DNA of 64,000 bases, taken from Owenia fusiformis (Eukaryota). The stretch spans positions 26,350,001-26,414,000 of the forward strand of contig CAIIXF020000001.1 of the NCBI GenBank assembly GCA_903813345.2, in the 5' to 3' direction. Made by a program: the position numbers and the translations under genes. A model generated the notes under the pieces. It did not search any database. It had not been told where the DNA came from and worked only from the letters and a program-made list of their open reading frames with translations. Shown here one piece after another: positions 1 to 28,275 of the stretch (positions within the stretch are counted from its first letter, which is position 1; each line of letters begins with the position of its first letter).

Positions 1-427
1 CAAAGGTTAACTATCTGCTTAAAAGAAATTTGAAGACATGTCTTAATATAGTGAAATAACACTTGAATTTGCTTAAGCATCAATAGGCAATATATTATCT
101 AAAGTAAGTGGTGTAGAGGGTGTCACCTTGTACTCTCATACATAAAGATTACAAGTCACCCTAATGTGAATTCAACTACAACCAAAGAAGCCTCAGATAT
201 CTAAAAAGGTAAGAAACATAGAATTGATTTAATGTTTACAAATCTAAAAAAAAAAAGGTTATATAATTCATGTTAATTCATGTAATAGAGGGTAAACAGT
301 CCACATTTGAATGTTAATTGATGGATTTGAATTTAAATGTATATTTGACAGTGGTTTTGATATTTGTACTTCGATTTCACTTTTAGTTTGATTTGTCTCT
401 GTGTAAACTGGTTAGACCTTTTTAGTT

Positions 428-754
428 CAGTGGTGTAGCGTGGGTATTTTGTTAGTGTACACTACGAGTGAGCCAAGAGAACAAGCCTTGTGGGGGTGGG
501 GGGTCTAAGAAAATTTGAAAGTGAGATTACATTTGAAGTGTTCCGGGTGTAATTCGAAATTATGACTAATGTGGACTAATAAAATGTAAATTTTCATTTT
601 TAAATGATAGCATGATAAAATAGGTGCCTCTCGAGAATAGATATATAATATCCAGTATTTTTAAAGTTTGGGGCAATTCAATATAAAAATCAACTTTTCT
701 TTAAATTTTGAGAGTTGCCATAGCATTTTATGCATATATGATGCTACGCCAGTG
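428..754. mobile_element. Decayed hAT-like MITE
   Basis: cagtggtgtagc ... gctacgccagtg with a G-run interior; TSD not preserved. Confidence 0.4.
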
Positions 755-3005
755 AGTTAAGTGGTTACCAAAGGGTTTTCAATATTTCATAATGTTGACA
801 TTTAGTATGAAGAGCTTTTCTGTAAATTTGGTGTATCCCTTCAATCAAGTGAAATACATTGTTGGTTTGATGGAGGTTTTCAGTATTGAATTATTTGTAA
901 ATAGGGATGCAAACAGCCAGATTACTATTACTTTACACCAGAAGTGGCGACCTTTGTTATTATAGTCTCAAATATTTTTGTGTTTGGTAGTTGGAGTTCA
1001 GCATTCAGTGTCTGTAATAGTGGTCAGTATCTGTAACAAATGGCAGGTGATGCAATTTTGCATGTTAATGCCTTTTATCTAAGTAGTATATGCATTTATT
1101 AATTTGTCACTTCATACAAGATTTTGGAAGAATTGCATAAAAGAGGCTTAGCAAATTGATCCTCTGAATGAGAAAAATCAGTATTTTTGGCTAATACTTG
1201 GAGGCTCAATTTCGATACTGTTAATGTTTTTGTAAAAAATATTGATTATATCAGCTGCTGAATAAACTGTGAAATAACATCATGTCACATATCATTGATT
1301 TGTAAAATAATTTGTGAAAAGTATCCTTGCTATATTGATTCAAAATGAAAACTGAAACTTAATGACAATTTGCACATATACCGTAGTACATATTACATAA
1401 TTTTATTTTACAATAATTTGAATTTATTCCATAAGCTGTAATATCAAGGCACAAAATTAACAAGAATCAATCCATCATCTTCAAAAGTAATGGTTAAATC
1501 AACCTAAGATGTAATTTCATACAGTTGTTACCAGGATACTGTATATCTGGTATTTAATATTAAGGTCAATCAAACCTTTTCAATTTTACATTGCAGGGTT
1601 TTGCTTAGATTTACACATATTGATTAATTCATTTTATAAATCATTTGCATTTTGCCAATATCAGGGTTTGGGATTGAGGGTGGCCTGTGTAAACCTATTG
1701 TAGCACACATAGTGTTGGTGAAGAAACAATCACATGTCTTTGCATCACCACCAAAAATGGTAGCTTATTGTAATTGTTACTTTTTGTGACTTGTGTCCAA
1801 TGTTTGTGTCAGCATCAGTGTTCAGCATCTGTAACATATTGTCACAATTCAGTAATTGCAACCAGGTGGTGACATTCTGGGTATCTTATGCCTTGTTTAT
1901 TTTATTTTACCGTAGTTGGTGAGAATATATGTCAAAATTAAACAGAGAACATGAAACTGAATTGACTAGACTTCTATTACTTGATCCTTATCTCGTCTTT
2001 GCGAGAGACATTTGGAAAGATCATGACAGAGGTAGTTATCATGACACAGTTGGACTGCTTTATGGTAATTATATTGTATGTATATGTAGTGCAACATAAC
2101 TTCACATGATTGGTGACTAATTTTATTGATTTGGGTTGAGGGAGTTATAGAATTATCATCCATCTGTTTGTCTGTCCATCCGTCCATTCATCCATCCATT
2201 CATCTGTTAGTCTCCTTGGTGGCGTATTTTGAAATTGACAAGATGGCACAGCAGAAATGTTAATTTGAGCCAAATTTTTCTAAAGCATTACATATTTTCT
2301 CTAATATGAGGCCCTTTTTGCTAATTACATGTTTTTCTTAAAAAAGATAATCTTGTCTGGCTGGTGGGTAGCTTGTGACTTTTGCTTGTTTTACTATTTA
2401 TCTTTAATTTATTTTCAACAGGCAATGAATGGGACTTTTTGTTAAATCATAATAAAGGAATTTAGAGTACATGTAGATATACATGTATCAGGCTTTAGAT
2501 TTTTGCAGCATGTTCAAAATATCTTCCATCATTTAGAGGAACATCTGGGAACCTAAAATGAGTATTGGCCAGAAATCTGAAAAAATAATTCAATCATCTG
2601 CTTTGGCATTTTTGCCAGAAATATTGAAAATTAAGCATATTTTGAAAAATGTCAAAACTCCCATAAAAGAATCAATATCTACAAGCCGATTGTCAGTGAT
2701 AAATATTTCGTTTGTTGGGATTGCTAGTAGCATGTGGAGTTGTCGCTGTCTAGTTAAACTATTGATTTAGATATTTTATTGCGTACCATATCTTCAGTTA
2801 TTGACAATTAACATGCAACAGTCATCTGTGTAAAAACTCGAAAAGATTTGTAATTTTATGATATTGTCCACTTTGAACTTCATATGCACTATGGATAATA
2901 TGGACATCTTTTATATCGCCAAAAGTGTATCAAAATCACATAAATGCTTGCTTGGGATACATCTTACATTTATTTCCGTTTGAGTATTTTAAATGTCAAT
3001 TTGAG

Positions 3006-3214
3006 TACTGTATTAGTGGTATTTAATCTCGAGTGAATATTTTCCGAATGGTCAAATTTCATCATTTTCCTAATTTTACTTTTCCTAATGACAAGAAACC
3101 TCACATTGGATAACATTATAAAGACAATATTTCCGACATTTAATTTTCTGACCCTGGAAAGGATTAGGAAATAGGCAAATTAAATGATTAGGCAAAATTA
3201 CCACTTATACAGTA
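3006..3214. mobile_element. TACTGT...ACAGTA MITE
   Basis: tactgtattagtggtattt / aattaccacttatacagta. Confidence 0.65.
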
Positions 3215-3855
3215 TACTTAATAAAAACTGTTCCATATATACATTGTTGTCAAATAGATGTATAAGAGCAAACAGGTTGCGAAGACCCAGGGGCTGATGT
3301 TCCTGCAAGATTTACACCTGTATACCAATAATAAACTACCTGTCAAACACCTAGAAGAAATGAACAGTTTCAAGCTATTTAACTAGAGGTCTAGTGCTAG
3401 GTGCCTCTAGGTGAATCCTTTGTAATGATCACCTTTAATGATATTTCTGCTTTCAACTGAATTAATATCGAGCAGTCTGTGGTTAGAAAATAATGGACTT
3501 TCATATGCATCTTTGGACATGAAAATTTTAATATTTAGTCTCTAATTAGCTGCCTTTGTCCACAACCTGAGTGCTAATCATTGACAAGGCAGATCTAGCA
3601 CAAGATACATTAGCTTCAGTTGGAAGCTGGTCAATTTTTTTAAATACCACACTGCAGTTTTCTAGCAAGTGGCCATAAATGCTTATCATAACAAAAACAG
3701 TAGGCCATTGCTGTTATAAGTTATAACACTGATCTTGATATTGAACTTGAGCCAATCTGGATATATTTGATCTATATTTGCATTGTCTGGAAAGGAATAC
3801 TGACAGGAAAGGAGATTTCAAATAAGGATCTTTATTGACATACTGCAGCATCAGA

Positions 3856-3897
3856 ATGAGTTTCTGCACATTGTTTGGATCATTTAGAAAGTTTGAG
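3856..3897 (+). CDS. Candidate alternative first coding exon (MSFCTLFGSFRKFE)
   Basis: ATG with A at -3, 14 codons, donor GAG|gtaaga; phase 0 fits exon 15631. Confidence 0.5.
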
Positions 3898-5991
3898 GTA
3901 AGAGTCTAATTACATTTTCCTCAATGCCTGTTCTGAAAATGTAGACTGAATGGAAAGATTTTTGAACCATGTACCTCTATTCCAGAATAAAGTCAACAGA
4001 GAAAATGTGCACATTAAGTTTGATCTGGGCTCTAATCAATCAGTTTTTTTTATTTTTGAATTATGCTTTGTGGATATATGGCAAAATCAAACAATTAAAA
4101 GGGTAAGGTTTCAATGTTGACTAATTACTAGATCAGCTGATGAACTTCTATTCAGACACTGGGTGAATCACTCTTAATTCTCATCAAACTTTTACTTTGA
4201 CATTTCATTGACATTTATTGTTTCTTTTGACAGCAAAGAGCATCAGTCAGCTTGTTTCTTGCCTTAAGGTCATTAGGCTCACTTATTTTCAGATTTATTT
4301 CTCTTTCTGTCTTTAATCTTCCTTCACTTTAATTTGAAAATTCCATTATCTTAAAATGCATAAACTTATATTGTCATTTGTTCTATCATTCAAATTAGGC
4401 TTTTTATTACACAGGGCATTAAATAAGAAATTAAATATATATTGGCCTGATATGTAGGTATATTGAAGGCTGTCTGTGCTATTGGCATATATTGAGTTGA
4501 TGAATACCAATCCTCAATAGATCAACCTTAAATATGATGAAATTGATACATTATTTGGATACATTACCTACATAAAATGTTATTTTACCAAGACCAATGT
4601 TCAAAAATCATGGTTGCGTCGTTGGCAATAACTTTGTATTAATCTTGGCAATGGACTTGACCTCTGCAGTTCAGGAGCCTGATCAAGATGCATTTTTGCT
4701 AGAGCTTGACTTTATTTTGTTCTTTAAATTTGAAATTGAATTAGAAAAACTGTTGGAGCAAGCCTATATCTAATCAGAATGTTCAGCCAGAATTTCTTCA
4801 CAATGTTTTTCCAAATGAGTAGCTGACTTTTATGCCACATTAAAGCTCCAATGAAAGAACACAAATACTCTATTTGAAAATTGAGGTCAAAACTGTAAAA
4901 TCATTTTTAGACAGAGTATAGCTGATGTGGAATGCAGGGTACATATTTTTTCAAGACCTTCCCCCTGGGATCTACTGGCTTCAACTATGTGACTAATATT
5001 GCAATCTTAGTCTATATTAAATGAATGATTAAAACAATAAAAAACATAATAACTTAATTTCATTTCCTTCAGAGTAAAATGTTTTATTTAAAGTAAATGA
5101 ACTTAAGTTATTATTAATATATTACCAGAGTGATGAATTTACACAGAAATAAAAAACATATAAATTGAGAATAATATCAACTGATGCTTGATTCTTCAAA
5201 TTAAAATTTTTGAAAGTTATTTTGACAATGAGGAATTTGCTGCATTTTCTCATAAGGATTTAGTTGTTATTACTTTAAGATGTTACCTTGATGAATTTTC
5301 TTATGTCACAAAGATGTCACTACAAACAGACCTTATTTGGTTGGAACAAATGAATGCGTTTCAGCAAAAATATATGTTTTTGTATGTTAATAACTTTGCC
5401 AAGTTGTTCTCTCTCACACACATTCATCATATACTGCATGTATGTTAATCAAAAAGCAATATCTAACATGACCTGTTTACTTTATAAGGAAAGGTAAATG
5501 TTCACTCCTTTTTGGCCTACCCTTTGGAAAAGGGATTAACGTCCTCTCATACTCTTACATAACTGATAAACAACTAAACATGCTGATCAAATCAGAGTCT
5601 TATCCCATTAAGGTTGCTCTTAATATTTACAATATGAATATATATAAGCATGACTATATGGGGCTCTCTGGTTGATTACTAAATCATAAAGTCATTAAAG
5701 TCAAAGTTAGAGGATAGTTATATTACTAGCCAATATGCTCAGGGTAGTTTCAGGCATACAAAATATAAATTTATAAAAAACTGTTTCAATTGAGAGATGT
5801 CACTTGCTCTTTAGCTTAAACAAAGCTGTTTCAAAACAACATCTAACCAAGCAGAAATTAACATAAACATGCGATAAGTTATAAGGTTAACATTCTAGTT
5901 AAGGAGTGTGCCTGTTCAACACTTTTTGAAAAGTTTTCATAATACTGGAATTTAATACCAGTCAATTAACTGTCACAGAGAAAAACACAGA

Positions 5992-5997
5992 ATGCCG
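5992..5997 (+). CDS. Candidate alternative first coding exon (MP)
   Basis: agaATGCCG|gtaaga, phase 0. Confidence 0.35.
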
Positions 5998-7196
5998 GTA
6001 AGATAACAATTTAAAGTTCAAATATATTTAGCACTTATATGCATTAATTTGTTTGAAAAAGCTTTAGAATATGACAGCTTTTAGATTTAATATGCTGTCT
6101 GTACACAAATGTCATTAAAAATTGAATTTAATGTTCTGAAGTTTGAGGCTTTCAAGGCTATATTTTTATGACTGTGCAAACTGCAGTATTGTGTATATGT
6201 CTATGTATTTTAATAGGTATATCCACTGACAATTTATATATATATATCCATATCAGGTGAAAAGACCTGTTTGATTTGGAAGCCAACATTTGCATATTAT
6301 GACTTTATGATATTTCAGCTAACATGTACATGTGTAGTAGGACATGTCATTTGAAAATATTTTTATGATATTAACCGGTTGACCAAAACCGGAAAAGATT
6401 AATTTTCTGAATCATTTGTTAAACCTCCAAAGTGGGTACATGAACTAAAATAGTGACCAATACATAAATCCTTAGTGGGTTTAACATGTACTTATAATGT
6501 GAAAAGCCTAGGAAACCTTTTTTCTGCTTACCATGACTCCATAAATCTTTTTAGTAGTTGTGTCAACTTTTGATGGAGTTTAATGTGTATACACCACTAT
6601 GTGGATTTTATGATTTTCATGACGTCAAGCACTGTTCATTTTTGGAGCCTATTGATACTCTAAAAGTGGGCTTTGGCAGTTGATGTAGTGTATGCCAATT
6701 CTGAATGAGTGAAAGCAAGTTTAATTGCAGGATAAAACATAAGTAGAGAGGAGTTTCTTGCTCTGTTGGAGACCAAGGAAGTGTTGCATTTTGCTTTCCA
6801 TTGAGCCAAATAAGATTAAAGTTAATATTAGGTTAGGTATAATACAGAAACAAATAAGTTGCCAAGAATTGACATACCAGTTATATCCAAATCAAAGATG
6901 ATGAACGATTTATGAGACAATAGTTGAGTATTACTTGTTGATGTGGTCTGTCCATAGAACCTATTGAACTGCATCAGTTTGGAAATATTTGCTCACAATA
7001 TGAATTATTTCAAAGGATACCTTTTCTGTAAGGATATTATAGGAGATGCATCATAAAGTGGTATATAGGTTACAGATTGATATAATGAAACTGAAGCTGA
7101 GATACCTGCTAAGTTATAGAATCTAACATGATACCTGTAATGAGTTAAGAGCAGTTATCAAAGTATACATAAGAGGCATCATATCTTCTATCCAAG

Positions 7197-7238
7197 ATGT
7201 CGAACTTTATAACAAGAGCCTTTATCAGGTTTAAAAAG
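7197..7238 (+). CDS. Candidate alternative first coding exon (MSNFITRAFIRFKK)
   Basis: aagATG, 14 codons, donor AAG|gtaaat, phase 0. Confidence 0.5.
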
Positions 7239-8987
7239 GTAAATGTATATGATTATTTTTGATTTATATATGTTTTGTGTTTTTGGCTCTTGAGGATGAT
7301 GAAGGAAAGTATGGGAGGATATTTTTATGTGATCTTGAATAAATGATAAAAGAAATATGTTTTCATCATAAAAGAGAAATGGTTAATAAATATGCTGCAT
7401 TTACATTTGTTTATGCAGGCCTGCCATTCTTTCTATTTCTTCTATTCAGCTATATCTCAATGTCTTAGAAAGAGGCGTGGATTATGTTCAATTGTCAACA
7501 GTTGATGGATTCAGGAAATGGATGAATGAGTTGGTTAGTAGGCAAAATCAAAATTTCCAAAATTCATTATTTGGTTAGAGGATGAGGAATGGGGAGGGTG
7601 TTCAACCACATGAATATTAACTTAGTTTTCCACATTGTCAGCATTTGAACACCATTCTTAAGGACCATAATGGAAATGGTTGGAGAAAAAGCTCTTGAAA
7701 GTAAACACCGAGCTCAAATATAATCATATGAATATTTTTTATTCAACTACATGTATTGTAGTAAAGCGTACATGTGCAACAGTTGATATGTATGTTGATG
7801 GCTATTGTCTCTAAAATAAAACAAAACAATGGGATGTAAAACATACAATTGAATATAATTACAAGTTCTAAAACAATACAATAAGATACATTATGTTGGC
7901 CTTGATCATGGTTTTTACATTTTTAACTTGACCTGCAAGGGGTGATTTTAAAAATGGTGATTATGTGTAGCTTGAGATAATCATTGCTGATGGGATATGT
8001 AGTTGTCTTTACATGTTTATATCACTGCATGAAACCATTCAGCTTTTAAATGGTTTATATTCAAAGACCATATTAATGATAAAAAAGAACATATCAATAT
8101 TTTTGCTCTTTGCTCACTGGTATAAATCTTTCCATGTAATGTTTCTTAGATAAATGGTTCATGAATTTGTTGGTATTCTTAAGTATGGTATGCTACCTTA
8201 CTACATTCAACCTTGTCCCTTGCTACCTTCATCATCGTACCATAAGATTAAACATGTTACCGGAATGCATAATTGGCAACAAAATGTTTGTAGAGCTAAA
8301 AGAGAAATATTGGTAAAATGGTGAATGGAAGACATTATATAACACAATCCATGTACAGTACTATGTTTAAAGTAAATACAGTAAGTAGTAAGTAAGTGAA
8401 ACTCTTGATGTTAACATGCCTTTGGGTTTAGAAATAGAGTTCTCTACAAGATTACCTCCCTTTGAATTCTCTATTAAAACACAAAGCTTTCACCATTGAA
8501 ATATAAACATGGTCGTCATATTTTTGACATCCTGTTTAATATCCAGTTGGATCATATCCTTGAGTATCATTGTACTTTCATGGCCAATGTATTTATGTCA
8601 TACTTGGCACGGCACAGTTCAATGAACCTATCTGATCATCTCTTTTCAAGGCATTAGTCCATATACCACAGGTATGTAGGCTATCACAACATCTTTAATA
8701 AAAAGATGGTTTGTTGTCATGCCATATTGGTTTATGATACATAGATATGATATATAGAATGGTATCATGACCCAGCATTGATTTCTTAAACCTATGCCCT
8801 TGGCTTGGTTGGTCTGAAAAACACCTTTGATGCCTTCTTTCACTTCGTAGACCATGAGCTTTAAACAGAAAAATTAGCCTATAAAATATATGGCAGAAAA
8901 TTTGGTTCAATCATTGAAGGAAGCTCATTGGAGATGATCCAGCAAAGCAACAGTTTGACATTGTACAGTTCACATTGGTGAAGTCTG

Positions 8988-9691
8988 AATAGACCTTTTT
9001 TACTTTCACCGATTTCAACAACAGGGTCCCAATACCAACTTGATTACTGTAAATCGATACAGTAATTGCATATTTTCAAAATTTATTTTTGAGCATAAAC
9101 TCTATACTTTCACCGACATAGAGATATGATTATGATATAATTTACTTAATGAAAATGACTGTAAACCCATCATTTATCTTGTTTTTATTTTACTTTCACC
9201 GATATAGAGATACGAGTACCGACAAATGATATAGAATCCCGACTTATGCTAATGTTATAGGACAAGTTTCTATTTGCAATATTAATTTTAGCGATTTATT
9301 TACAACCTCATCCATTTGCCAAGAACACACACAATTGACAGCCAAAATATTAAAAGACATTGGATATGATTCACAATAATTACAATAATCAAAAAGAGTT
9401 TATTCAAATAATTTAATGAATTTTCAATAAATATTGATTACAAATAAACCATTCATAAACGTCTATATATTTCGTAATATTTCATTAAAATAAAAACAAG
9501 ATAAATGATGGGTTTACAGTCATTTTCATATAGTAAATTATATCGTAATCATATCTCTATTTCGGCGAAAGTATTGAGTTCATGCTCAAATATAAATGTT
9601 GAAAATATGCAATTACTGTATCGATTTACAGTAATCAAGTGGTTATCGGGACTCTAGTTGTCAAAGTCGGTGAAAGTAAAAAAGGTCTATT
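8988..9691. mobile_element. Foldback MITE with ~205-bp inverted arms, superfamily unclear
   Basis: AATAGACCTTTTTTACTTTCACCGA ... TCGGTGAAAGTAAAAAAGGTCTATT; arms at 8988-9192 and 9486-9691. Confidence 0.88.
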
Positions 9692-11139
9692 AGCACAAAA
9701 CTCTAGTTCTCCAGTTTTCTATTGTTTTTATGTTAATTTGAAAACATCTGATTCCATTGATCATCAGCAATATTTCTTTTAAAATGCAAATGATAAAGTG
9801 ATGTTCAGTAGGGACATTTGCATCAATACATTAGTGTACATCTGTACATTGTCCATAAAATCATTGCTTATGCAGGGAACCTTTTCAGTACAGAAAGTAA
9901 AAATGTGATTCAAGGTGAAACATTTGTAAAAATAATGTCTTTATAGGCTTTAATATCAGATTAAGATGTATAAGGATATGTAGATTATTAAACTGTGAAT
10001 CGCTAACTCTTGTCATCTTCACATAAGTTTTCTCTGTTTTCTTGAACCATGTTGAAGATGGGGAACCATTGATACCTCTTGATTTGTATCAACTTTTATT
10101 TGTCATTAATATTTTTTGCCTCTGGTGTGTAAGTTAAGTTGATTGGTACTTGTATTTTATGGGCTCTTTCAGGCTCTCCAGTGTCTACTTGATGCTGAAT
10201 CAACCACTTTATACTACTATAGCAATTATTGATATCCCATCACTCTTGTCATGAAATTACTCAATGACCCTCTTAAAAGGTAATTACATTTTCAGGGTAA
10301 CATACTTTTACCTTGGCTCCATCTCCAATTCAGTTAACCATACTGCCTTATAACAGATGATTTATTCTCTCATTTAAAGAGTATATATAAAGTAAAGATC
10401 TTGCAATGGGTACCGAACTGATTGAATTACAGTTGCCAGTTGTCCGGTAGAGTAGTATAGTACAAATTGACTTCCAGAAGTAGATAAACTTAGAGCTCCT
10501 TGTCACCCTGACTTTCATCTCACATTAGAGTAGAGAAATATCTGAATGCTTGGTCAGTAAAAACTCCTCTGTCAAAACTGGTCTAAGCTTTGGTGGTGAC
10601 TTATTGTTATAGTCTCTTTTTTGTGGATGATGTTCAGTAGTTGGTGTTTGTTGTTTGGTAGTCAGTGTCTGGCAGCGGTAACAAATGGTAAGTGGTGACA
10701 TTTTGCATGTTAATGCCTTGTCATTTTTTTCCTGGTTTATCCTCCAAGTTTGTTTTTGCTGGTGTAGAGAATTAAATTCATCTAGATAAAAAGATGTCAC
10801 ATCTTGCTTGGTTATTTGCTAGCTCATCCTTGCTGCAAGGGTATTTTATAAATATATAAACATAAATGAAGTCCTTTGAAGAAGGATGTGCTAGCTACCA
10901 ACAATTAGTTTCTGAATCCCCTGGGTGTCACAAGGTCTCATAGAAAGACCATTCCCACAATAATCAGCACAATTTTAATATAAGATTCAGTACTATTTAG
11001 CAATTTGTGAGCATGAGAATCATTGCAAAATATTGAATGATTAATTAATGGTAATTTGCTAAATCTATAGGATCACATAATGTATCATATCATGAGTTTA
11101 TTATTTATGATGCATACTCATCATTGTGGGATCAACAGT

Positions 11140-11200
11140 TGACATGTAATCGGGAGGTTGTGGGTTCGATTCCCACCAGGGTGGAGTGACTTTTTCACAT
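11140..11200 (+). mobile_element. tRNA-derived SINE fragment
   Basis: T-arm/B box gtgggttcgattcccac; 5' half decayed. Confidence 0.6.
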
Positions 11201-12806
11201 CACAGCCCTTAGCATGGGATTTGATCCTATGTTTTTAGATTAACCAGTACTATCCCTCTCACAAGCTTTAGCTAAAGAGAGACTGATAATTCAGAATGCA
11301 TGCTCGTAGATCCACACAATCTTAGCGTGGCATTGAGATTATTGTTGTTTGCAGATTGCACCAATATAACTTGCCAATTTGAATGAGCAGAATTCTCTGC
11401 TGTTTCTCTGTTTATTGATTTAATTTGTATGAAAGGTGAAGTGTATAGGTAGAATTTATTGTTATTCTATAAAGCCTATACACATTATGCATGGCAGATC
11501 GTTAGCTGGAGAGATTTGTGCTTCACCTTCTCTAATAACTACATTTACAGGTCTAATAACTGCACTGATCTGAGCTGCTGGTATATAGTCTAATAATTCA
11601 CACAATTGTTATGTATTGTTGGGATTAGTGTGATATTGCGAAGGGTATTAGGACATTTAGATAAGAAAGATTCGACCTGTAGATGTATGTTTAGAACCAG
11701 ATAGGAGATTCACAACGTAAGATATAATTATGTGTCGTTATTATGCCACATGGTAGATTCTAGATTGATGTGGCATATAGTATAATACGTTGTAATATAG
11801 TATAATGAGCTGCAATATAGTATAGAAAGCTGTAATATAGAGGTACAGGATAGAACCACGGGATAGATGTACAGGAAATACATTCAAATTGGGAGTAAGT
11901 AAAACCAACTTTAACACAACCATAACACAATTCTTTTATACTTGGGGTAAAATTACCTCACCCAACAAAAATACTTCTGTCAACTGTGGCAAAAAGATTT
12001 TAATGGTATACAGGCAAGGCAAGGGTATGTGACTAAATAAGGTAAGGCATGGATAGGTGTCTCTCTTCTCCATTGGTTTATATGACCTTGTAACACATTC
12101 TCTTTACAAATTCAGGGACAGCCGGGCTACATTAAAGTAGAGGGCTGATATATTAGATCTGCGGGACGATGTTTTGCTGAGTGGTAAAAAAGAATTTAAA
12201 GATGTTTAACTTACTCTTGAATGTGTAGTTTCATTTGCTAACATTTTAGTCAAAAGCAGCATGTGTACTTATCTTAAGACTGATTAGCAATCAATAGGTG
12301 TTCAATAGTGTTGTATCTTTAATCACATCAACTACTTCAGTATGAGGTCTTATTGAATGTTATCATCTAATGAGCTTATAAGTTATGGTAAATACTGGCA
12401 TATATTTTTGTATGGGAAACAATTTAACCATTGATCATTGATCTGACCATGGTCTTTCCCACCAAGTAAAGCCCTTACTTGGATGAAGAAGAGCCTTACA
12501 AAATCTCACTACTCATGATCACCAAGAATATCCTCATGAACTAATTTTTTGCATTCATGATACAGCTTTCACCTTAAAGTTGCATTTGCTTGTTCAACTG
12601 ATTATATTTGCCAATGTTGATTGCTTGATTGATCATTTTGAGGTTCTTGCATGTAATTACTTAATTGAAGAGTATAATTTGTCCTACATGTAAAACAAAT
12701 TAATTCTCAATATTAGAAGAACTTATCTGTTGCCCACTAGATCTTTATTTATTGTATGATCTGTAAAATGGAGCCCTCTGATTGGTCAGTTCTTGTGCTG
12801 TACCAA

Positions 12807-12899
12807 TCTGTATTGCTACTGAGATTGTCCCCGTTGATCATCTCCGTCGCAATACAGAAAATATTGGTACAGAGGGGACAATCTCAGTAGCAATACAGA
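12807..12899. repeat. 26-bp perfect inverted repeat
   Basis: tctgtattgctactgagattgtcccc / ggggacaatctcagtagcaatacaga. Confidence 0.85.
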
Positions 12900-13469
12900 G
12901 GATCACACGATAAAAATGTTGTACAGAATTGCTCGAGCAGAATATATCATGTATTGCACTTGAAATCATTCAATAACTTATAATATTTTTTTATTTAATT
13001 AGCAATACAATCATAGCAAACTTATAGAATTAAGGCCATGATGAACAAACTTAAATGGTATTGCATCAAGTCTATCTTTTTTCTTCCCCTACATGACAAA
13101 TAAGTATGAAAAGAAGGTGGCTTTACCACTTTAGAAGAGTGGGCTTGATGCATGAGTGAAAAACTAGGTAGATAATAAAATTAACCTACTTTAGCCTAGA
13201 TTATGGATTATTTAACATGATTTGTGTAATTTACAATTTTTGTTGACACATTCCATCTCATTGATGATGATTATCCTAATAAATAATTATAATTAATCAA
13301 ATGCATATATTCATGTAAGCTTCATGAATTAAACCCTAATGATATATTACTATAGAAATATTTTTCGTAATATTTTTGTAACATTATTTGCATGTTAAAA
13401 ACATCTTCTACATGTCTAGATATATAATATCTGTACAGTGTAAATATCTTTGAAATTATATGAGAATCT

Positions 13470-13823
13470 TAAAATTTACTTCATTGAAGTCCTGCAGATT
13501 TTTTTTGTCAGAACAAAAATTTTATAATTGTCTATATCTGGAAATGATGGCACTAATCCAACTAATGCATTGAAATCAGACCTGACTGATTTATCCATGA
13601 GCCAGAAAATATCTCTTATTATGTTTGTTCTGTTGATCGTAAGTTTGGAATCATGATCAGTAATTGCAGTTCCAGGACATTTAGTGTTATCTTTCTCAAT
13701 TTAATTAAGGTAAGTGGGTTGAAGATATATGTCGCTTTAATTGTGATAATAATCCATTTTACTGTAATGTTCCATGTAGTTCCATGTAAAAAAATCTGCA
13801 GGACTTCAATGAAGTAAATTTTA
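13470..13823. repeat. 36-bp perfect inverted repeat with a ~280-bp spacer
   Basis: taaaatttacttcattgaagtcctgcagattttttt at 13470-13505; reverse complement at 13788-13823. Confidence 0.9.
13653..13709 (+). CDS. Candidate alternative first coding exon (MISNCSSRTFSVIFLNLIK)
   Basis: atcATG, 19 codons, consensus donor AAG|gtaagt, phase 0. Confidence 0.4.
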
Positions 13824-13957
13824 TCAAGCATTTTGAGAATCATCACCATATTGAAACAATGGTAAAATGCACAAGATCTTGGTCTTCCTCATAAAAGTCC
13901 TACTTAGAATCATATTACACTTTCTTTTGATAATTTGGCAAGTGAGCAATCATTTAG

Positions 13958-14075
13958 AAAATGGTGGCCATTTTTATGTGTTATTTTATCATTTTTGCTA
14001 TAACTGAAAAAGTAGTAGAAGGATTTTGTAAAAATGGCAGCTATGGCTGTTCGATGGGATTTGCTATGCCTGGAT
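13958..14075 (+). mobile_element. Truncated 3' fragment of the HINE family at 52140
   Basis: Shares aaaatggtggccatttt, ctataactgaaaaagtagt and gttcgatgggatt with that element. Confidence 0.7.
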
Positions 14076-14211
14076 ACTATAATGGGTAGTGCTGATGTAT
14101 TTGAATGCCTTGCTTTTTACAAAGTTCAGTTTGTCGATATACAAGTTGGAAAACTGGATCTTGATAAAGATGAAACCTATTCTGATTAATTGTTTTCTGT
14201 GGTTATATTTC

Positions 14212-14530
14212 ATGTGGTATCACATTGTCATATCAAACAAACAAATGCGGTATCACATTGTCATATCAATCAAACAAATGTGGTATCACATTGTCATATC
14301 AAACAAACAAATATGGTATCACATTGTCATATCAAACAAACAAATGCGGTATCACATTGTCATATCAAACAAACAAATGTGGTATTACATTGTCATATCA
14401 AACAAACAAATGCGGTACCACATTGTCATATCAAACAAACAAATGTGGTATCACATTGTCATATCAAACAAATGTGGTATCACATTGTCATGTCAAACAA
14501 ACAAATGTGGTATCACATTGTCATATCAAG
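14212..14530. repeat. 33-bp minisatellite, about 10 copies
   Basis: Unit atgtggtatcacattgtcatatcaaacaaacaa. Confidence 0.95.
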
Positions 14531-15630
14531 CAAGCAATAATAAAAAAAACATATGTTGCATTACATTGTTACTCAAACAAACAAACACACAAACAAACAA
14601 ACAAACCTGACATCACAGTCACATCAAACAAATAAACAATTGTATGAGTAGTACATGTATGCCTATTATTATATACTCAACTGTATATCCAAGTATCAAC
14701 AAACCTCATTAATTAAAGTAATCTTTTACAATAAGTGACCACATGACATATGTTAACTAGATCGGAAATTACATGTTGCCCGCATTAATCTAATAAGAAG
14801 TGTGATGATTGATATATGTATTATGATATGACTTAAGTGCATTGGGATTATATTATATGTTCGTATCTTCATGGAAATGTCCATAATATTTTCTAGGATG
14901 AAGTATTTAGGTAGGTTGGGGCAAAATACAAGTGGAAATGGAGAAAATGTCATGAATACAGGCATAATTATTTTTTGAAGAAGAGTTTTTTTTTTGAAGA
15001 AAAGTTACTTTTTGAAGAAAAGCTGCTTTTTTATGAGAGACAATGGGTGTTACTAATGTGGTATCACATGGACTGGCTTACCAAAGCAGTAAACAAGATA
15101 GCTTTATAACTTCACATTGTACAAAGAAGGGATTTAAAAGATAATGCTACCATGCATTGTGGGCATGTTCTCATTAGCACATTGCTTTTATGTATGATGT
15201 TAGTTCACATGAATATTTAATATCACAAATATGCAACGAAGATTGGTAGGTTATTATAGTTCCATAAACATACATTATACTCAAGTATGTATGTAATATT
15301 TTGCATATTTCAATATAGAGAGTGAAACTTTATTGTTTTATTTTGGTAATCAATTCAAGTATATTGTGACTGTATAAGGGCATTTACAGCATACTCGATG
15401 AGACATACTCATAACATATCAGTGAACCATTTTAATTTTCAGCAAAGTTAGCTTAGTGATCAGAATAAAAATCAAAAAATTTAGTGTTTCACACTAATTG
15501 TTACATACTGTACACTCAATTTTGTTAGGTGGTAAAAAGTTATTTCGTAATTTTCACTTGACATCTTTTGAAATGGCCTCTTAATGGCCTCGTACAGTAT
15601 GATTAACAAAATGATCTTGTGTGCTTTCAG

Positions 15631-18600
15631 AGAAACTCCAAGTCTTACAACCTCAGCGCACCAGATGAGGATACATCTAAGTCTGGTGGTAGCCTAGCAG
15701 GAACCTCTCACAGTAAGAAACAAGAGAGGAGAAACAAACTCCTTGGAAAGACTGGGAAAAAGCCATCACAATTATCTATTGATGACATCTCAGCACCAAT
15801 CATACAACAGTCTTCTCCTGATGTGAAATCTCCTATTGTGCAACAGTCTTCTCCTGATGTGAAATCTCCTATTGTGCAACAGTCTTCTCCTGATGTGAAA
15901 TCTCCTGTAATTCAGCAGTCATCTCCTGGTGTTAAGTCTCATGTTATACAACAGTCCTCTGGTGAACTGAAGTCTGATACTAATAGTAATCATCAAAACG
16001 GAAATGCTAGACCACTAAGTCCTAACAGAGATTCCTATGTACACAAGGAAAATAACCAATCATTAAAGAGACAGAATTCATCTCCGAGGGAGGCTCCACC
16101 AGCGCCACCTAAGGACATAAGAAAATCAAGAGCTCCACTTTCACCACCAATTCAAAAGGCAAATGAGAATATAAAGGACAGTATACCATCTAGGAAACCT
16201 AGTGTTAAAGGACTTGCCCCAGAGCCACCAATAAAATCTTCCAGAAATTCTAGTCAACATAATCAGACTGAGGAGCTTATAAACCAAACTGAAAACTCTC
16301 TTCAAGCAAATACATTACCAAGGGTCAGTTCTCCAGTTAAATCTTTACCCCCATCAGAGGCCCCTGTCCAACCTGTTCCTCCCCCTAAGACTAAGAGACG
16401 GACTAAGAGATCTTTGTCCCCCAAAAGGACTGCTCCATTACCCCCTGCTCCATCTTTACCTTCTGGATGCAAGGAGCCCAAGACGGAAAGCAGCGACACT
16501 TTGAATGAGCTTATTAGATCTGCTAATCAAAGTGTATCTTCTGAACCTCTACCTGATCCAGTTCAAATTCAACAAACAGTTAATGATCCTCTAAAGGAAT
16601 TGTCTAATTCTCCTGATCCTGTGGTAACTAAAGAAACAGTGGAACCAATATATAGCAAGGTTGTTAAAACACCTACTGCTGAGCCTATAAAGAGACCCCT
16701 TAGGCCATCACAAGAGCTTAAACAAAACTCAGGTGAAGAACCCATAGTCGCAGCACAAGCTCCAATTCCTCCAAAAAGAGATCGAACAAAACGTAGAAGT
16801 AAAAAACTTTCAAACACTCAGGGTAATGAAGTATGCGACTCTGGATTATATTCAAATGTTATAATTTCTAGAAAGGAACCAGAAGTTGTTCAAGTACAAG
16901 AGGATACAAACTTAGTTTGTGATAATGTTAACATAAGTAAAGGGGATACAAGTGCAAATCCGACTGACATAAGTGCAAATAATGATGACAGTGTAAAAGT
17001 AAAATTCAGTGAAGAGACAAAATTAGAAACAATAAGTAAAGCGCCTGTTGAGTTAGCTGAACCTCCTGCAATAGAAGAAGACATTAGACCAATAGAGCCT
17101 CCATCTGATTTCTTTTTAAGTGATGATAGTGTGACCAAGAAAGATCCATTTGTGATACCTCTTGTCAGAGCAAGTGAATCCGTAGCAGTAACAGGTCAAC
17201 CTTCAAATTTACAGCCTCTTTCTGATTCAGAGCCTCCTTCTGATTTAGAGCCTGTCTCTGATTTGGGGCCTCCTTCTGATTTCTTCTTAAGTGATGAAAC
17301 TCTGCCAAAAAGAGACCCATTTATAATACCTCTTGTAAGGGCTAGCGAATCTGTTGCGTGTACCAGTCCACCCCCGTCTGTCACTCCACATACACATACC
17401 CCTATTGAAGATAATAATTCCGTTATTGATTCAAGCCCTCCAGAACCTGTACCTGTAACAGACATTGATGACATTCAGTTAGATATAACTGATGTTGAAA
17501 ATACATTTGATGATATCTTAACTGAAAATAATATTACAATCACTGAGGAAAACTCAAAAATAAGTGTTGATGATGCAGCTGATATAGATTGTGCTGATGT
17601 AGAGAGTGCATTTGATGAGATTCTTGCAGATTTTGACACTGAAGTAGAAAATACAGTAGCACTAGACAGAGAACCAGCTTCCCATTTGTTAAATCTAGAT
17701 TTGAAGTCTACATTCGTTGATCCTTCAGACATTGGTTCAGTCAGTCCGAGAGAGCCCCCACCTCTGCCTGAATCTGCTCCACCCCCTTTAACCCCCCCTG
17801 AGGAGGATCCATATCCCGATATTGTGCCTCCTGTGGAGTCAACTGAAATTACATTTATCCCTATTGACACTCCAGAAGCCACCTTCCTTGCTGTACCAGA
17901 GGTTACTAGCCTTGCTCTCACTGAAGATACTGTTCACCTCCCTCAAGTTGAAGACCCAGATGACTTGAGTTGGATTGCAACATTAGCTCAAGCTGAACAA
18001 GACGGTGAATTCACCAGGGAGGACGTTGAGGAAATATTAGAAATGGAAGCAGAAAGGAGAAAAAAATCAGTTGATGAACTGAGAGCAGAATTTTTTGGCA
18101 TCCGGAATGACGCAGTTAAAGTAAGCACCCCAAAGTTGAAGTCTGTTGAGAATAACAATGAGATAACTGTAAAACCAGTTGTAATTGAGGATAAGACAGT
18201 CTCTAGCATTAAATCTGATGTTAACACTGAGAAAAGTGTTGGTGAATATGACTTTATTCCACCGCCATTGCCATATAGTGATAATATGTCTAAAGTAACC
18301 GTTGTCTCCATAAAAAGACCAGATCCTCCACAAAAGGAGAAAGGCTATGGACTTGACAGTGATTATAGTGAGGACTCTGATATATCAGATAATGAAGAAG
18401 TATTTGCAGCAACATTTACCCCTGGTGATACTGACAAGAAAAAAGTTAAGCGTGGTACTAATGAAAGCAGTGATAGTGGTATTGCTCTGATATCATACAA
18501 AATTAACGAAAATGACAGAAATACCAAAGATCCATCCATCTACCCACTTGGTGATGAATCCGAAGATGGGGGAATCACATTGATTTCATACAATAAAAGT

Positions 18601-19069
18601 AAATCAGATGATGTGTCTCAAACAACGAAATCCATACCCCCTACAGTGGCGCCAGTTCCACCAAAAAGAGCATCAAAGTTGAAAAAGGATGAGCCAGCCA
18701 TGATTGCTGCACCACCCCTACCTAAGACCCCACCCCCAGATGTGATACCATCATCTATGTATTCATTACCAACCTCCACCTCATCAAGTATGGAGAAGAT
18801 GAAGGACATTGCAAACAGCAGCACATCAGGTGAAAAGATGGTGTACATCAAGGGCAGCAGTTCAGATAAACCGAAACCTCTCATAGAAGGCTTCTCTTCA
18901 GAATTGGACGAACTCGAGTTAGAGCGCAGGAAACTCATCAGTGAAAACAAGATGGTCAACAAGAAGGTCACTTGGGGTCAAGGGCAGCTGCAGGGTGAAG
19001 ATGTTGGTGCTACCGCCATTCTAAAGTCTCCACCACCTCAACAACCTGACATTGTACCCAGGCGCAAGG
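15631..19069 (+). CDS. Giant 3439-nt coding exon of a MISP/AKAP2-like scaffold gene (Pro/Ser/Glu/Asp-rich disordered region)
   Basis: Lies within the 1170-aa ORF. Acceptor tgctttcag| at 15630 (phase 0); donor AAGG|gtgagt after 19069 (phase 1), which matches the acceptor at 38404. Confidence 0.85.
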
Positions 19070-20235
19070 GTGAGTTTCTTTTATTAGTTTGTAACCTTAA
19101 AGTGGCAATAAGGCTTGTAGAGAGAAAATAGGAAAATTTTAACTTTTTCTGAGCTATCAAGGCAACAGTTGGCCTAACATCTTCTTCGACATACCTATTT
19201 TCTTAAAATGTATGGATAAACTATCAATTTCGGCATTAAAAAGTGTAAATTCAGTTCAAAGCTTCAAAAAGGGGATGTCCACTTTTATATTTTTAAGATC
19301 CACCATGTTTCAAGAGGAATATAAGCTGAAATAATGATTATCTAGGGGGTTTCTTTTTAGAAAATAAAAATAGATGTTAGTCTTGATGAAATATCCAAAC
19401 TTAAATATATTTTGACACTGGTCCATGATCGTTGAATGGCCCCTCTGCACTACTTGTTGCACCTTTAAAAAAGAAAATCTGCAACTAGTAGTTTGGACCT
19501 TGTGCATGTTTTCCCTAGTTTTGAATAATACAAGATTTTAGCATAGGGCAAAGGATGGTGAGTATAAAACATGTGTTTTGTGTATAATAGTGCACTGTAC
19601 TTTCCATAGTATAATGTTATTTATGTCATGCATGAACATTCTAAATTAAGATATAATAGATTAACTGTCAAACCAAACAATTCCAGTTTCTTTTTTACCA
19701 TACCAAGCTCTCCCTCTACGAATGTTGAACTCCATGACTCAAAAATGTAGATGTGATAGACATCTATATAAGATCATGAAATGTTAGTTTGTATAACTGA
19801 TCTTTAAAACACTCAGTACAATCAGTATATAAAACTTGACAGTTATTGACTGAAATGATTAAGTTTATTATGTAAATACTTGAACTTTTATGTAAATTCA
19901 TTCTTGTTAAGATCTCTCAATTTCTTAAGTATTCGAACACACTGTACCTGATGATGATAAAATTAAGACAAATTGATATAGGATTCAAACATGACCGTGC
20001 TCTATTCGAATTTCTCAACCAATCAGAATGCAGCATAGCCAATATAGAACGTTCTCTAATTCTCCATAGATGCACGACCATGCTCTATTCAATCTGCAAT
20101 TTGCATTGTTTTGAGTGACGTCACATCTCAGCTAGCTGCACATCTGGGGCTCTGTCCGGGGATAGCTGTTCGTATTCTTCCTTCATGCCCGTTCCACAGA
20201 CACGGCTTTTACTAATTCGTTTTTATGTTTGAATC

Positions 20236-20394
20236 GGAATAAATAATGATAGGCCATTCAATATGGTGAAATTCAGCACTCGTTGGACAGAATGTTAGTA
20301 CAAATGCACTCACCTTCGGTTCGTGCTTTGTACAACATTCTGTCCAACTCGTGCTGAATTTCACCATATTGAATGGCCTATCATTATTTATTCC
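20236..20394. repeat. 159-bp near-perfect palindrome, possibly the end of a Crypton-like element starting near 19923
   Basis: Outer 44 bp are perfectly complementary, followed by shorter stems and a tiny loop. Confidence 0.9.
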
Positions 20395-21207
20395 TTAATT
20401 GATTGATTGGAATAATTTATCTTTTGATTGATATTAAATTTATAATGAGAGTACTGTAATTAACAAAGGCCATGTACTGAAATAAAATAGATGTTGTTAC
20501 ACCTGTAATTACATTACATGTACATATACTAGCCAAGGGGCTCTTAAAGGCCACAATGGGACAAGGCGTTGTACTAATTAGAATTTGAAGTTCATTTTGT
20601 ATTGATAGAAATACATGTCATAAAGAAATTGATACACTGAGGAGGCACCGTATTTTAGAATTGGATGTTTATACAGTCACATATAAAATGATAAAGTCAA
20701 GTTTGAAGCAGTTAAAAGTTAAAATGTAACTTGTTAGAACTGATGCACCAACGATGGACTTAGAGATAACGAGTCTATGTGTGTTTAGAATGAAACACCT
20801 ATCAAAGTACATACAAAAATATATCATTGATAAACAGCCTTAGATCTCAATAGGTGCTGAACATTGACAAAATTAATAGGACCAATATATCAGGATTATT
20901 TGACTGAAAGTAAAAATGTAACCAAAATGCGTGAGAAGCGACAAGTGGCTGCCCATATACGATATGAGATCATAGGTCAGGGCAACGAAAACCCGCCAAT
21001 TAGAAAATGTTGATGTTAAAATGTGTTAAATCACACTTAGTTCAGCCCACACCTTATATGATAGGTCAACTTTGACGTTTCAGATTGGATTTACTTACTA
21101 AATTAACTATTGTGTAGATAAGAAATTCAGAATAAGATAGCGGAATCTTGTATCAGAGTAAATCCAGCTTATTAAGATAGAAAGATCATACGAACACATC
21201 TCGTAAA

Positions 21208-21409
21208 ATGTCTGATGATGAAGCTTTATCATGTACTGTTGAACCACGATGGGCAGCTGGGGCTGTACGCATCACAGATGATGCTCTCGAGGTCAGTTTG
21301 AGCTACTTACGGGACCTCTGTATCGCAGGATTACCACCGGGACATGAGAATAGCAACCAACAAGTTGTCAAGGTTGCGCTTACTCCATCTTTGGTTGATG
21401 CAACTACAG
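21208..21409 (+). CDS. Candidate alternative first exon (MSDDEALSCTVEPRW...VDATT) or fragment of an unrelated insert
   Basis: aaaATG start of a 121-aa ORF; internal donor ACAG|gtatta is phase 1, matching exon 38404. Confidence 0.25.
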
Positions 21410-22949
21410 GTATTAACAATATAAAGTTGATTTTTTCAGTAGATAAAGGATCTAGAAAAATGATATGCAACTGGTTCAGTAATGCCATTCTGACTGGCTG
21501 CTTTCAGAACCTTAGCTCAACCCCTTGTTTTAGATGCAGGATTTGTCCCAAGAGAAATATATATATCTCTTGAGGGACTGCAGGAACAGACTCATATTTC
21601 CCAGTAGATAAACCCTGTAGCTGTAGCCAGAGCCATATTTATCAAAGGTATCCAATACATTATGGGTCTCTAGCTATAGGGACCCAAATTTCAATTTTAT
21701 GGTTCCAAAATTTAAATTAAATGAATTACCAATTCATTTGACTCAAGTCAGTTGTTATTGTCTGAAAAAATAATTTTAGTGATATTATTTGATATTAAAA
21801 GTACAGCATCTAGAATTCTGACCATAAATGTCCTGAATATGTTTTAATTCATGATGATGATACTTTCCCCATCAATAGACTTTGGTACCTACCCTCTTTG
21901 CTTAAGATATCAATGCTTGAAAGAATTATTCAACTAGTTATTTGTATGACCATTTTCTTACTGAATTTTATATCTTTCACATTTTTCATTTTTGACTGGC
22001 AATTAATTCACTTTATAACATGAGCATTTTTTAACATTTTATAGTTATATTATTAAAGTCTATTGCTAGAGTAATTTACAGCTTAAGAATTTAAAATATA
22101 TTGGGGTGATTTAGGATCAGATATTGGCCCTTTACTTAACAGGTACATAGTAGCTTTTCATTACACCCCCCCCCATTTTTAATTTGAACTTTGTTTTGTA
22201 TGATGTTTAAGAAGTCCTGATAGGGTGTTAATAACCCTTTCTAGTAGTTTGATTTCAATTCTTAAAAGAGAGCTTCATCTGTTTAATGTTGTAGACTCGG
22301 ACAACTAGGATATGTCTCCAAGCAAGATTTTATACATGTAATAATAGTACTATATAGAGTTTGATTGTTCACAGATGGAGAATCACATAAGGTCAAATCG
22401 AATAATGGTTAAGTTCAAAACGGTCATTCCATGCAATATGTCGCAAATAATAATTGGTTATACAAAGTTATTAATAGATGTATATGACAATTGTTTTAAG
22501 ATGATCAGTTGGGATGAATTAGATGATATATTGTATGATCATTTGTCTTTTTTTCACACACTTTAGTAGTAAAAATCTTTTTAATAGTGAGGTTTCGCTC
22601 ATAAGTGGAAGCTATACGTAGTAAGCATTAGGAAGTGAAATTTTGTGTTTTGCAACAAAGAATACTTCATATATATAGATTATCATTTATCAATCAATTC
22701 TAATATCATTTCATCAAAAATACTTTTCTCTGCCAAATTCCTTGTTTGTATTGTTGATTGGATACTAATATGACTAAATGTCAATTATTGCTGTGATTCT
22801 AGACTAACAATTATGTCTAAAGTATATTAGGATTTACTCACTTATGCACAATGTTTTATAATGGCCTCTTATAGACATATGGAGCTACGAGACAAGTGGT
22901 GACACAGTACCCCAAAATTATAAGTTATAAACATAAGGGATTTATAAGG

Positions 22950-23295
22950 GAGTCTGAGATTTGATGCACTGGGTGAAGGGGTAGAGTGAAAGCCTGAAAT
23001 TTGATGTAATGAGTAAAGGGTTTAGAGGGAAGCCTGAGATACTAGTTTTTGATGTAATGGGTAAAGGGAGAGCCTGCGATTTGATGCAATGAGTGAAGGG
23101 AAAGTATGAAATTTGATGTAATGGGAAAAGGGAAGAGGGAAGTTTGAGAGATTTGAAGCAATGGGTAAAGGGGTAAAAGGAAGCCTGAGATACTAGATAT
23201 AGTATTTGATGCAATGGGTAAAGGGATATAGGGAAAGCCTGAGAGATTTGATGAAAGGGTAAAGGGATAGAGGAAAGCCTAATATATTTGATGAA
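22950..23295. repeat. Degenerate purine-rich ~40-bp tandem repeat
   Basis: Recurrent tttgatgcaatgggtaaaggg...aagcctgaga. Confidence 0.75.
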
Positions 23296-26129: not shown

Positions 26130-26271
26130 TGCCTCGGTCACATTTGCCCGAATCTTGGGCGGCGCCTGGCAGATTGAGTGTTTTGTTCAATATTGTATTC
26201 AATTTTGAACAAAATACTCAATCGGCCGGCCAGGCGCCGTAGTGAAAATAGTAGCAAATGTGACCAAGGCA
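26130..26271. mobile_element. Small palindromic Harbinger-like MITE (142 bp); decayed relative near 53797-53900
   Basis: TTA TSD, TIR TGCCTYGGTCACATTTGC, internal inverted repeat. Confidence 0.8.
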
Positions 26272-27799
26272 TTAGATATTGATTCTCTGCAGGACTGAGG
26301 AGGAAACATTAATAGGAAAATTACTCCAGACTGTAAAGTACAATACCATGCCCAAGGTTGAGTTCTACTCATGACAACATGTTTTGCTAATGATGTTAAT
26401 GTTTAATGGCTTGAATGGGAAGGATATGTCCTAAGATTAACCTTCTTTTGGCTTTATTCTGAAAAAACACCTTTAATCGCCAGCTGAAAGCCTTTTATTG
26501 GCTAATTAAAAAACATGCATTCATATCAGATATAAAAAGAGTCCTTTTCGAAGTTTACATTAGTTTGTTTTTGTATTTCCTTTGAGTTGTTTTCTTGAGG
26601 AGTGAGGTGTAGACTGATTCACACTTGACTAGTTTTAACCTCAAGGTTTGTGGTACTACATTCATGTCTGACAGTGAACGTTTGCATTAAGTGTGTGTCA
26701 GATGTGCGTGCATTGAAATCTAACTGTTGAGTTTGCTATTCACTGTATAATTGTCAACCTTCTTCAAGAAAAGGAAATTTTATGCTTATGTTTGTTTTCT
26801 ACTAGGATTCCAGTACGAGACATAACCAACAGGTAAGTTACAAATATCTTTTAAGTTCTGAGCCAAGAATTACGAATACGGGGATATATTGACATCTGCA
26901 GATGGTTTTAAAGTTAAAATAGTACAAATGAAAACATGAATTCCATACTTTAATTAAGTATTCTAGAATTTGATGAGAAAAATACAGACATTTCGAAACT
27001 TTATCCCAGGCTTAAAATTAGTTAAAATGGATCTATGGGTACATCCATGGAGTACATTGAGTAATGGGTTAGTACATTTTATATTTTCAAAACATTTTAA
27101 TCAGGATGTATCTATTATTGTTAGGCATCTATAACAATATAGGAAACACGGTATAACATATTAGTGTCATCACTCAACCTGTAAATGTGTATGACCATGT
27201 TATTGACGAAGTAGGGGCTCACTTAGAGAGGGTGTCTCGTAAGTTGACTGATGTAAATACTTGTATATTTTAATTTCATATATTCATTACGGTGTATGAA
27301 AATCAATGATGCTGCACAAAAAAGGAAAATCAGGGCGGAGAAAATCAAATCATAAGTATTTGGTATTTAAAGAGGATTTAAGAAGTCACAAAGTAGAGGC
27401 CTTTCACCTTCTCTGAGTCAGTTCCTGTTACATAGCCATATGCTAAAGGTTGACGTCTTTCTGCAGTAAAGTTGACATATAGGTTAAATCTCTTTCTGCT
27501 GTAGGTTGTAAATGATCTATCAAATATGTTGAAGTCATCCTGACTTTGCAGGTACAGGTTAAAGGACTAATCGCAAAAAAAATAAACTCTGTTTACTTCG
27601 TTGGGATAATGAGGTATTCTATGAGACTCAGTGGCTTCGAATTTACATATTTCATTGAGGTGATATCTTTTATGCAGAAAGTTTGCAACATGACTCATTA
27701 ATGTTTGAAAGCTTTCACACAAAATGTGGTCTAATAAACACTTTGACCAATTTAACCATGGACAAGTAATACAAGCATGTCTAGCATGCTCTAGAAGCA

Positions 27800-28275
27800 C
27801 TACCATACATTGGTACTGTTGGACATTGGCACTACCAGACAATGGTACTGCTATTACAACTACCATACATTAGTAGTCTTATACATTGGCACTACCAGAC
27901 AATGGTACTGCTATATATTACAACTACCATACATTGGTAGTCTTATACATTGGCACTACCAGACAAAGGTACTGCTATATATTACAACTACCATACATCG
28001 GTACTGCTATACATTACAACTACCATACATCCGTACTGCTATACATTACAACTACCATACATCGGTACTGCTATATATTACAACTACCATACATTGGTAG
28101 TGTTATACATTGGCACTACCAGGCAATGGTAATACTATACATTACAACTACCATACATCAGTACTGCTATACATTACAACTACCATACATTGGTACTGCT
28201 ATACATTGGTAATACCATAGATTAGTGTACTACCACCTATATACTGCTATACATTGGCAATACCATCTAAACATT
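27800..28275. repeat. Composite minisatellite (actaccatacattggtactgctatacattaca variants)
   Basis: Interleaved ~32-bp unit variants. Confidence 0.9.

Follow-up and report, generated by a model that had tools for sequence, protein, structure and literature searches.

The vertebrate PALM2-AKAP2 locus has several promoters. In PMC3405040, AKAP2 relatives are described as 'paralemmin downstream genes' (PDG), which in vertebrates can share a transcript with the paralemmin gene upstream. An analogous arrangement had been proposed, in a preliminary description made from the sequence, for a stretch of DNA from the annelid Owenia fusiformis, i.e. positions 26,350,001 to 26,414,000 of the forward strand of contig CAIIXF020000001.1 (assembly GCA_903813345.2). 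We refer to this stretch of 64,000 nucleotides (~33% G+C, 67% A+T, eukaryotic DNA) as the window and count positions from its first letter. The preliminary description held that alternative promoters swap four short membrane-targeting leaders, each encoded by an ATG-to-donor unit, at the front of one giant exon. Our analysis shows that one of the four, unit 3, is truly spliced to the giant exon and probably belongs to an unannotated and minor alternative first exon (~6889-7238), and that the four coding exons at the 3' end of a large scaffold-protein gene lie in the window. Taken together, these data make it fairly probable that an internal promoter yields a minor isoform of this EH and AKAP2_C-like scaffold that lacks the EH domains.

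Positions 1-20000 of the window were compared with two raw stranded RNA-Seq runs (X19 and X20) and with Logan contigs of two further runs, X8 and X1, each from a different study. Of the 40 joints, 527 loose ends and 2875 pieces obtained, the best 15, 24 and 16, respectively, are considered here, and 'listed' refers to these below. The giant exon, which starts at 15631, reaches a depth of 100-350 in X8 and of 22-48 in X1, and contigs end at its borders (15631 and 19070). Many intron bins have a depth of 0, and zero depth across most of the intron indicates that X8 and X1 are complementary DNA. In the raw reads of X19 and X20, coverage of the giant exon is ~1-7x and first mates fall on the - strand only; the RNA is therefore of the + strand. 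The X8 contig of the giant exon (record 11) begins exactly at 15631, presumably because several sequences precede one acceptor in the k=31 graph assembly, as we expect such an assembler to behave.

A GT..AG joint leads from 7238 to 15631 (7236 to 15629, with the cut at +2) and skips 8392 bases. It is carried by one contig each in X8 (depth 11.5, 32 letters past the joint) and X1 (depth 8.6, 22 letters past the joint), so that contigs from both studies contain the junction expected of unit 3. Record 10 of X8 (371 nt) covers 6898-7236 and record 1 of X1 covers 6889-7058, and neither contig carries letters of an exon further upstream (starts at 6898 and 6889, respectively). These contigs also bear on whether the exon is a first exon at all. 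An AG at 6879-6880 lies just ahead of the contig starts, and the exon contains a phase-0, in-frame stop (TAA at 7170) upstream of the ATG at 7197, which resembles a 'poison' exon; the exon could thus be an internal cassette of the EH-containing transcript that uses this AG as its acceptor. However, both contigs begin inside the exon with records 1 and 10 fully accounted for, and none of the listed joints leads into 6881. We consider a cassette exon highly improbable and treat 6889-7238 as a probable first exon.

With a helical hydrophobic moment of 0.606 on the Eisenberg scale, leader 3 (MSNFITRAFIRFKK) ranks in the top 0.4% of 11448 stop-free 14-codon control windows taken from the same DNA. 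Only 0.8% of these windows match it in the count of aromatic and basic residues. By eye, the translation of the giant exon contains no Met over roughly its first two thirds; a transcript lacking the EH exons therefore needs an upstream ATG to make protein.

Several observations weigh against an internal promoter that yields an EH-less isoform, and most of them would fit a different origin of the exon, namely a weak cryptic promoter in the intron whose transcript serves no selected function and is translated little or not at all. The leader-3 form is rare, with k-mer depths of 11.5 against 191 for the giant exon in X8 (~6%) and 8.6 against 33 in X1 (~26%), and the raw runs X19 and X20 contain no read in 6671-7337. 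The label of X8 and X1, 'RNA?', is itself a guess. Nine upstream ATGs lie at 6898-7140, each opening a short open reading frame (ORF) that closes within the exon; by our own arithmetic ~5.7 are expected from base composition, so upstream ATGs show no depletion, and ATG 7197 may be translated poorly. Over this exon, 15 of 339 positions of the X8 contig (4.4%) depart from the reference, compared with ~1% in the giant coding exon, which suggests weak constraint. The donor at 7238 is the weakest of the four, with a score of 7.3 on a rough weight matrix of our own that follows the general metazoan consensus and was not trained on Owenia fusiformis. No TATA-like motif was found upstream of 6889, which is weak evidence in DNA of 67% A+T, and chance commonly produces ATG-to-donor units in phase 0. 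In addition, no read or contig among the best 24 of 527 loose ends shows the junction from an EH exon to 15631. On the other side, runs from two separate studies share the junction, the ORF continues in frame into an exon devoid of Met over about its first two thirds (judged by eye), and the amphipathicity of the leader is matched by very few chance windows. A cryptic promoter is thus a possibility to be taken seriously, yet a clearly less probable one than an internal promoter that yields an EH-less isoform.

The giant exon lies in a very long open frame on the + strand of the window (15607-19131). A protein word search with it, made among longer proteins, gave one match, the 2468-residue Owenia fusiformis protein P0002 ('unnamed protein product / EH domain-containing protein' in the public record), which is 100% identical to the exon. 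The same search among proteins of near length gave no match, nor did a search with residues 1-160 among shorter proteins, in which alternative N-termini were sought. By tblastn, P0002 aligns to the window with residues 490-1637 at 15631-19074, 1636-1859 at 38403-39074, 1859-2406 at 47676-49319 and 2405-2468 at 49567-49758; the exon borders in Table 1 were taken from the splice sites. Residues 1-489, the EH-coding part that ends in ...GQTVF, have no tblastn match within the window, and the public model must therefore feed the giant exon from exons outside it. The acceptor reads tttcag followed by AGAAACTCC (AGAAAC), opening RNSKSYNL, and the last base of the giant exon opens a codon that is finished in the following exon.

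The front 489 residues of P0002 consist of two EH domains and a coiled coil. Pfam assigns the EH domain (PF12763) with 73.8 bits over two stretches, both encoded off the window, and the EH structures of EHD1, Eps15 and intersectin match P0002 at E ~1e-10. The protein is laid out as two EH domains with a coiled coil, a long disordered region and an AKAP2_C-like tail.

Table 1 Features of the Owenia fusiformis window discussed in the text.
Feature	Position	Strand	Remarks
Unit 1	3856-3897	+	MSFCTLFGSFRKFE before gtaaga; candidate leader
Possible second first exon	5791-5997	+	contig end at 'MP' donor; ATG 5992
Unit 2 ('MP')	5992-5997 (ATG)	+	MP before gtaaga
Probable alternative first exon, unannotated, RNA-supported	6889-7238	+	5' end approximate; donor GT 7239-7240
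Unit 3	7197-7238	+	MSNFITRAFIRFKK, 14 codons, before gtaaat
Intron of leader-3 transcript	7239-15630	+	8392 nt; from joint table
Unit 4	13653-13709	+	MISNCSSRTFSVIFLNLIK before gtaagt; best donor score of the four
Giant coding exon	15631-19069	+	3439 nt; phase-0 start; P0002 residues 490 to ~1636
Next coding exon, public model	38404-39074	+	tblastn and splice sites
Coding exon with repeated E-x-I-I-E-R-E-I-R type motifs	47679-49318	+	apparently related to AKAP2_C-family proteins
Last coding exon	49572-49761	+	stop TGA 49759-49761

In our proposal the giant exon, in phase 0, is internal to the gene, and most transcripts would arrive at it from EH-domain exons upstream of the window. That these exons are its main feeder is what we infer from the public model and from collinear mollusc proteins (see below). 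The intron that precedes the giant exon, 15.6 kb or more in length, would contain at least one internal promoter. Transcription would start at ~6880-6890, and the first exon up to 7238 would be spliced to 15631. If translated, the in-frame ATG 7197 would place a 14-residue cationic amphipathic leader on the giant exon, giving a predicted EH-less isoform of ~1993 residues. Use of this ATG and binding of the leader to membranes are both predictions of this proposal.

The sequence features on which a four-member array had been proposed are present as described, in that all four units before the acceptor at 15631 are in phase 0 and have an A at -3. We compared them with 300 first-order Markov simulations of 1-15630 (+ strand). 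At a donor score of >=7, the threshold required to take in all four units, 25 donor-like sites were observed against a simulated mean of 19.3, phase-0 units with an ATG-initiated ORF numbered 8 against 6.17 (P=0.28), and 5 of them also had an A at -3 against 2.35 (P=0.10). Beyond the four units, four more in phase 0 have donors after 1865, 4102, 10687 and 13941; in the other two phases the counts are 6 and 7, and the intron downstream (19200-38300) holds 6. At this threshold, the four-unit set is about the yield of chance. At a score of >=10, by contrast with the simulated values of 2.5, 0.65 and 0.25, there were 7 donors, 4 with an ORF and 3 with an A at -3, an excess with P ~0.003 or less on the same rough matrix, the last count being reached in 0 of 300 simulations. 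This set does not include the RNA-supported donor at 7238, and strong sense donors in the downstream intron also number 7, over 19.1 kb.

The peptides were judged against the same control windows, which contain on average 1.89 aromatic and 1.36 basic residues. Two of the leaders are indeed exactly 14 codons long, aromatic and basic, but these properties are largely compositional in such AT-rich DNA. The claim of amphipathic leaders holds for MSNFITRAFIRFKK and not for MSFCTLFGSFRKFE and MISNCSSRTFSVIFLNLIK, whose hydrophobic moments of 0.343 and 0.323 are equalled or exceeded by 19% and 11% of control windows, respectively. An early Cys is present in two leaders as described; a Cys among the first six residues also occurs in 21% of control windows, and the two Cys-bearing units are exactly those without RNA support, which leaves palmitoylatable leaders unsupported. 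More generally, AT-rich introns readily yield, by chance, short ATG-to-donor units in phase 0 whose peptides are 'basic, aromatic', and such units call for caution.

The RNA data distinguish the remaining units from one another. Record 9 of X8, a contig of 207 nt with a depth of 7.74, spans 5791-5997 and thus stops precisely at the 'MP' donor, gene-sense reads of X19 reach ~0.66x in bin 5337-6003, and TATA-like motifs are found at 5764 and 5772, upstream of 5791; the stretch contains two upstream ATGs. No joint from 5997 is among those listed, although a contig stopping at just this base would fit two or more continuations from the donor. We therefore regard 5791-5997 as a possible second first exon. 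For unit 1, the depth of bin 3336-4002 is 0 in X19, X20 and X8 and 0.1 in X1, while the bin of unit 4 (13341-14007) shows low depth on both strands. No listed joint leaves 3897 or 13709, unit 4 has no listed piece either, and no TATA-like motif was found upstream of 3856 or 13653 in this DNA of 67% A+T. For units 1 and 4, chance ORFs are the most likely explanation. Among the listed joints, the expected junctions to 15631 from 3897, 5997 and 13709 are thus absent, with the contig end at 5997 as the nearest approach to one.

These results bear on the proposal that four or more promoters swap short membrane-targeting leaders, be they amphipathic, palmitoylated or, as in MP, leaderless. One junction is confirmed, a second donor coincides with a contig end, the strong-donor excess with A at -3 favours it, and the best 15 of 40 joints and 24 of 527 loose ends leave room for further junctions. 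Against it stand the near-chance count at the threshold that covers all four units, the equal number of strong donors in the downstream intron, the almost empty bin of unit 1 in four of four runs, the lack of a listed joint for unit 4, the ordinary leaders 1 and 4 with a frequency of early Cys that chance provides, and a main feeder that is probably the EH exons. Thus, the idea of an alternative promoter supplying a leader survives in the 7238 to 15631 joint, whereas a four-member interchangeable array, with one of four donors joined among the listed joints, is not supported and appears very unlikely.

To place the C-terminal part of the gene, we used exon 47676-49319 as the query of an exhaustive HMMER search, which returned 111 proteins at E<=0.001. 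A Pfam scan of 22 proteins (P0002 and 21 of the HMMER matches) found AKAP2_C (PF15304) at E<=0.01 in 17. The 27-bit cut-off was reached by nine (P0003, P0004, P0011, P0017, P0030, P0044, P0074, P0092 and P0103), eight remained below it, and five had no match. P0002 is among the latter, its scan at E<=0.01 yielding EH only, and the Owenia exons gave no match to PF15304 at E<=0.1. As these exons lie below every Pfam threshold, the link to AKAP2_C rests on transitive similarity, by which the C-terminal part of the gene appears to be related to the AKAP2_C family.

The two matches of ~2000 residues come from the abalone Haliotis cracherodii (XP_071119810.1, 2084 residues) and the limpet Patella vulgata (XP_050403792.1, 2004 residues). 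Each combines a pair of N-terminal EH domains with a C-terminal AKAP2_C, and both align to the two ends of P0002, with 33-36% identity over ~350-400 N-terminal residues. We also considered whether P0002 is a false fusion. Since these collinear proteins share its EH-to-AKAP2_C layout, the public Owenia model is probably no such fusion. The abalone and limpet proteins (P0030 and P0058), with two EH domains and a coiled coil, a long disordered middle and an AKAP2_C tail, carry only 'futsch-like' or 'uncharacterized' annotation, and we know of no named family with this layout. In a literature search on AKAP2, paralemmin and EH domain, the term 'EH domain' was absent from the best 8 of 48 matches.

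The window contains further features in and around the gene. Inside the giant exon, a 36-nt tandem repeat (15805-15960, 4.3 copies) encodes repeats of the type SSPDVKSPIVQQ; one unit is absent from the X8 and X1 contigs alike (joint 15804 to 15841), which resembles a copy-number polymorphism that keeps the frame. Past the giant exon, the next intron holds a 130-codon open frame (21181-21573) outside the public model, and neither this frame nor the C-terminal exons gave anything significant against Pfam. In the intron ~1 kb before the giant exon, a 33-bp tandem repeat (14212-14537, 10 copies, 91% matches) is followed by (CAAA)n and explains two long chance ORFs at 14083-14635. A core of ~30-44 nt is repeated at 10678-10721 and 1030-1075 and attracts very many RNA reads, with a depth of ~2188 at 10705 in X19 and a bias of ~10:1 towards one strand. 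Reads diverge on either side of the core, and joints that go back connect both copies. A spliced leader at 10678-10721 was considered and ruled out, because reads diverge on both sides; the core probably belongs to a repeat family that is abundantly transcribed. Rfam gave 0 matches at gathering score on 1-20000, the core included. Three stretches of high depth on both strands with mostly partial read fits (2669-3335, 12674-13340 and 18677-20000) are presumably dispersed repeats, the last beginning within the final 400 bases of the giant exon and extending into the downstream intron. At the far end, several ORF pieces on the - strand in 55000-64000 (e.g. 55155-55418, and the coiled-coil-like 58306-59030 and 60813-61067) look like exons of what may be an SMC-type ATPase gene converging on the scaffold gene.

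For one Owenia gene, our findings supply a probable first exon missing from the annotation and, with it, a likely isoform without the EH domains, and they point to an AKAP2_C-like scaffold that, in an annelid and two gastropods, has an EH-domain front end in place of paralemmin. Their use lies in annotation and in a small point on the evolution of the paralemmin-downstream gene family; they raise no new question. A wider reading would make PDG-like lophotrochozoan genes two-module loci, in which an EH endocytic module is spliced across a very long intron to the PDG-like scaffold and internal promoters (7238, perhaps also 5997 and others) release EH-less scaffolds, one of which would bear a cationic amphipathic N-terminal helix in the membrane-anchoring role of the lipidated paralemmin of vertebrate Palm2-AKAP2. 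We hold this generalization to be unlikely; if true, a 'swappable front module plus internal promoter' would be an ancient feature of the PDG family.

Among the closest known systems are the mollusc proteins. XP_071119810.1 ('futsch-like isoform X2') and XP_050403792.1 (LOC126819670 isoform X4) are collinear with P0002: two EH domains and a coiled coil stand in front, AKAP2_C-like repeats form the C-terminal end, and the long middle between them is not conserved. They differ in the middle region, encoded by the giant exon in Owenia, which is not alignable. The mollusc isoforms seen (2004-2176 residues) are all near full length, with EH confirmed in the two that were scanned. As an alternative first exon, 6889-7238 is nothing unusual in kind: ordinary ones likewise bring their own ATG, are spliced in phase to a common acceptor and give an N-terminally truncated isoform. 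What sets the Owenia exon apart is a short, cationic and amphipathic leader with many upstream ATGs before it. The analogy to vertebrate PALM2-AKAP2, finally, has some basis because the C-terminal part of the gene appears to be related to the AKAP2_C family. The vertebrate PALM2-AKAP2/PDG loci (PMC3405040) and the Owenia gene both splice an AKAP2_C-related C-terminal module to a separately folded upstream module, and in both, expression of the downstream module alone is apparently possible as well, in Owenia via the first exon ending at 7238. The analogy stops at the front module, which in Owenia consists of two EH domains and a coiled coil and not of paralemmin, and at the Pfam threshold for AKAP2_C, of which the Owenia exons fall short.

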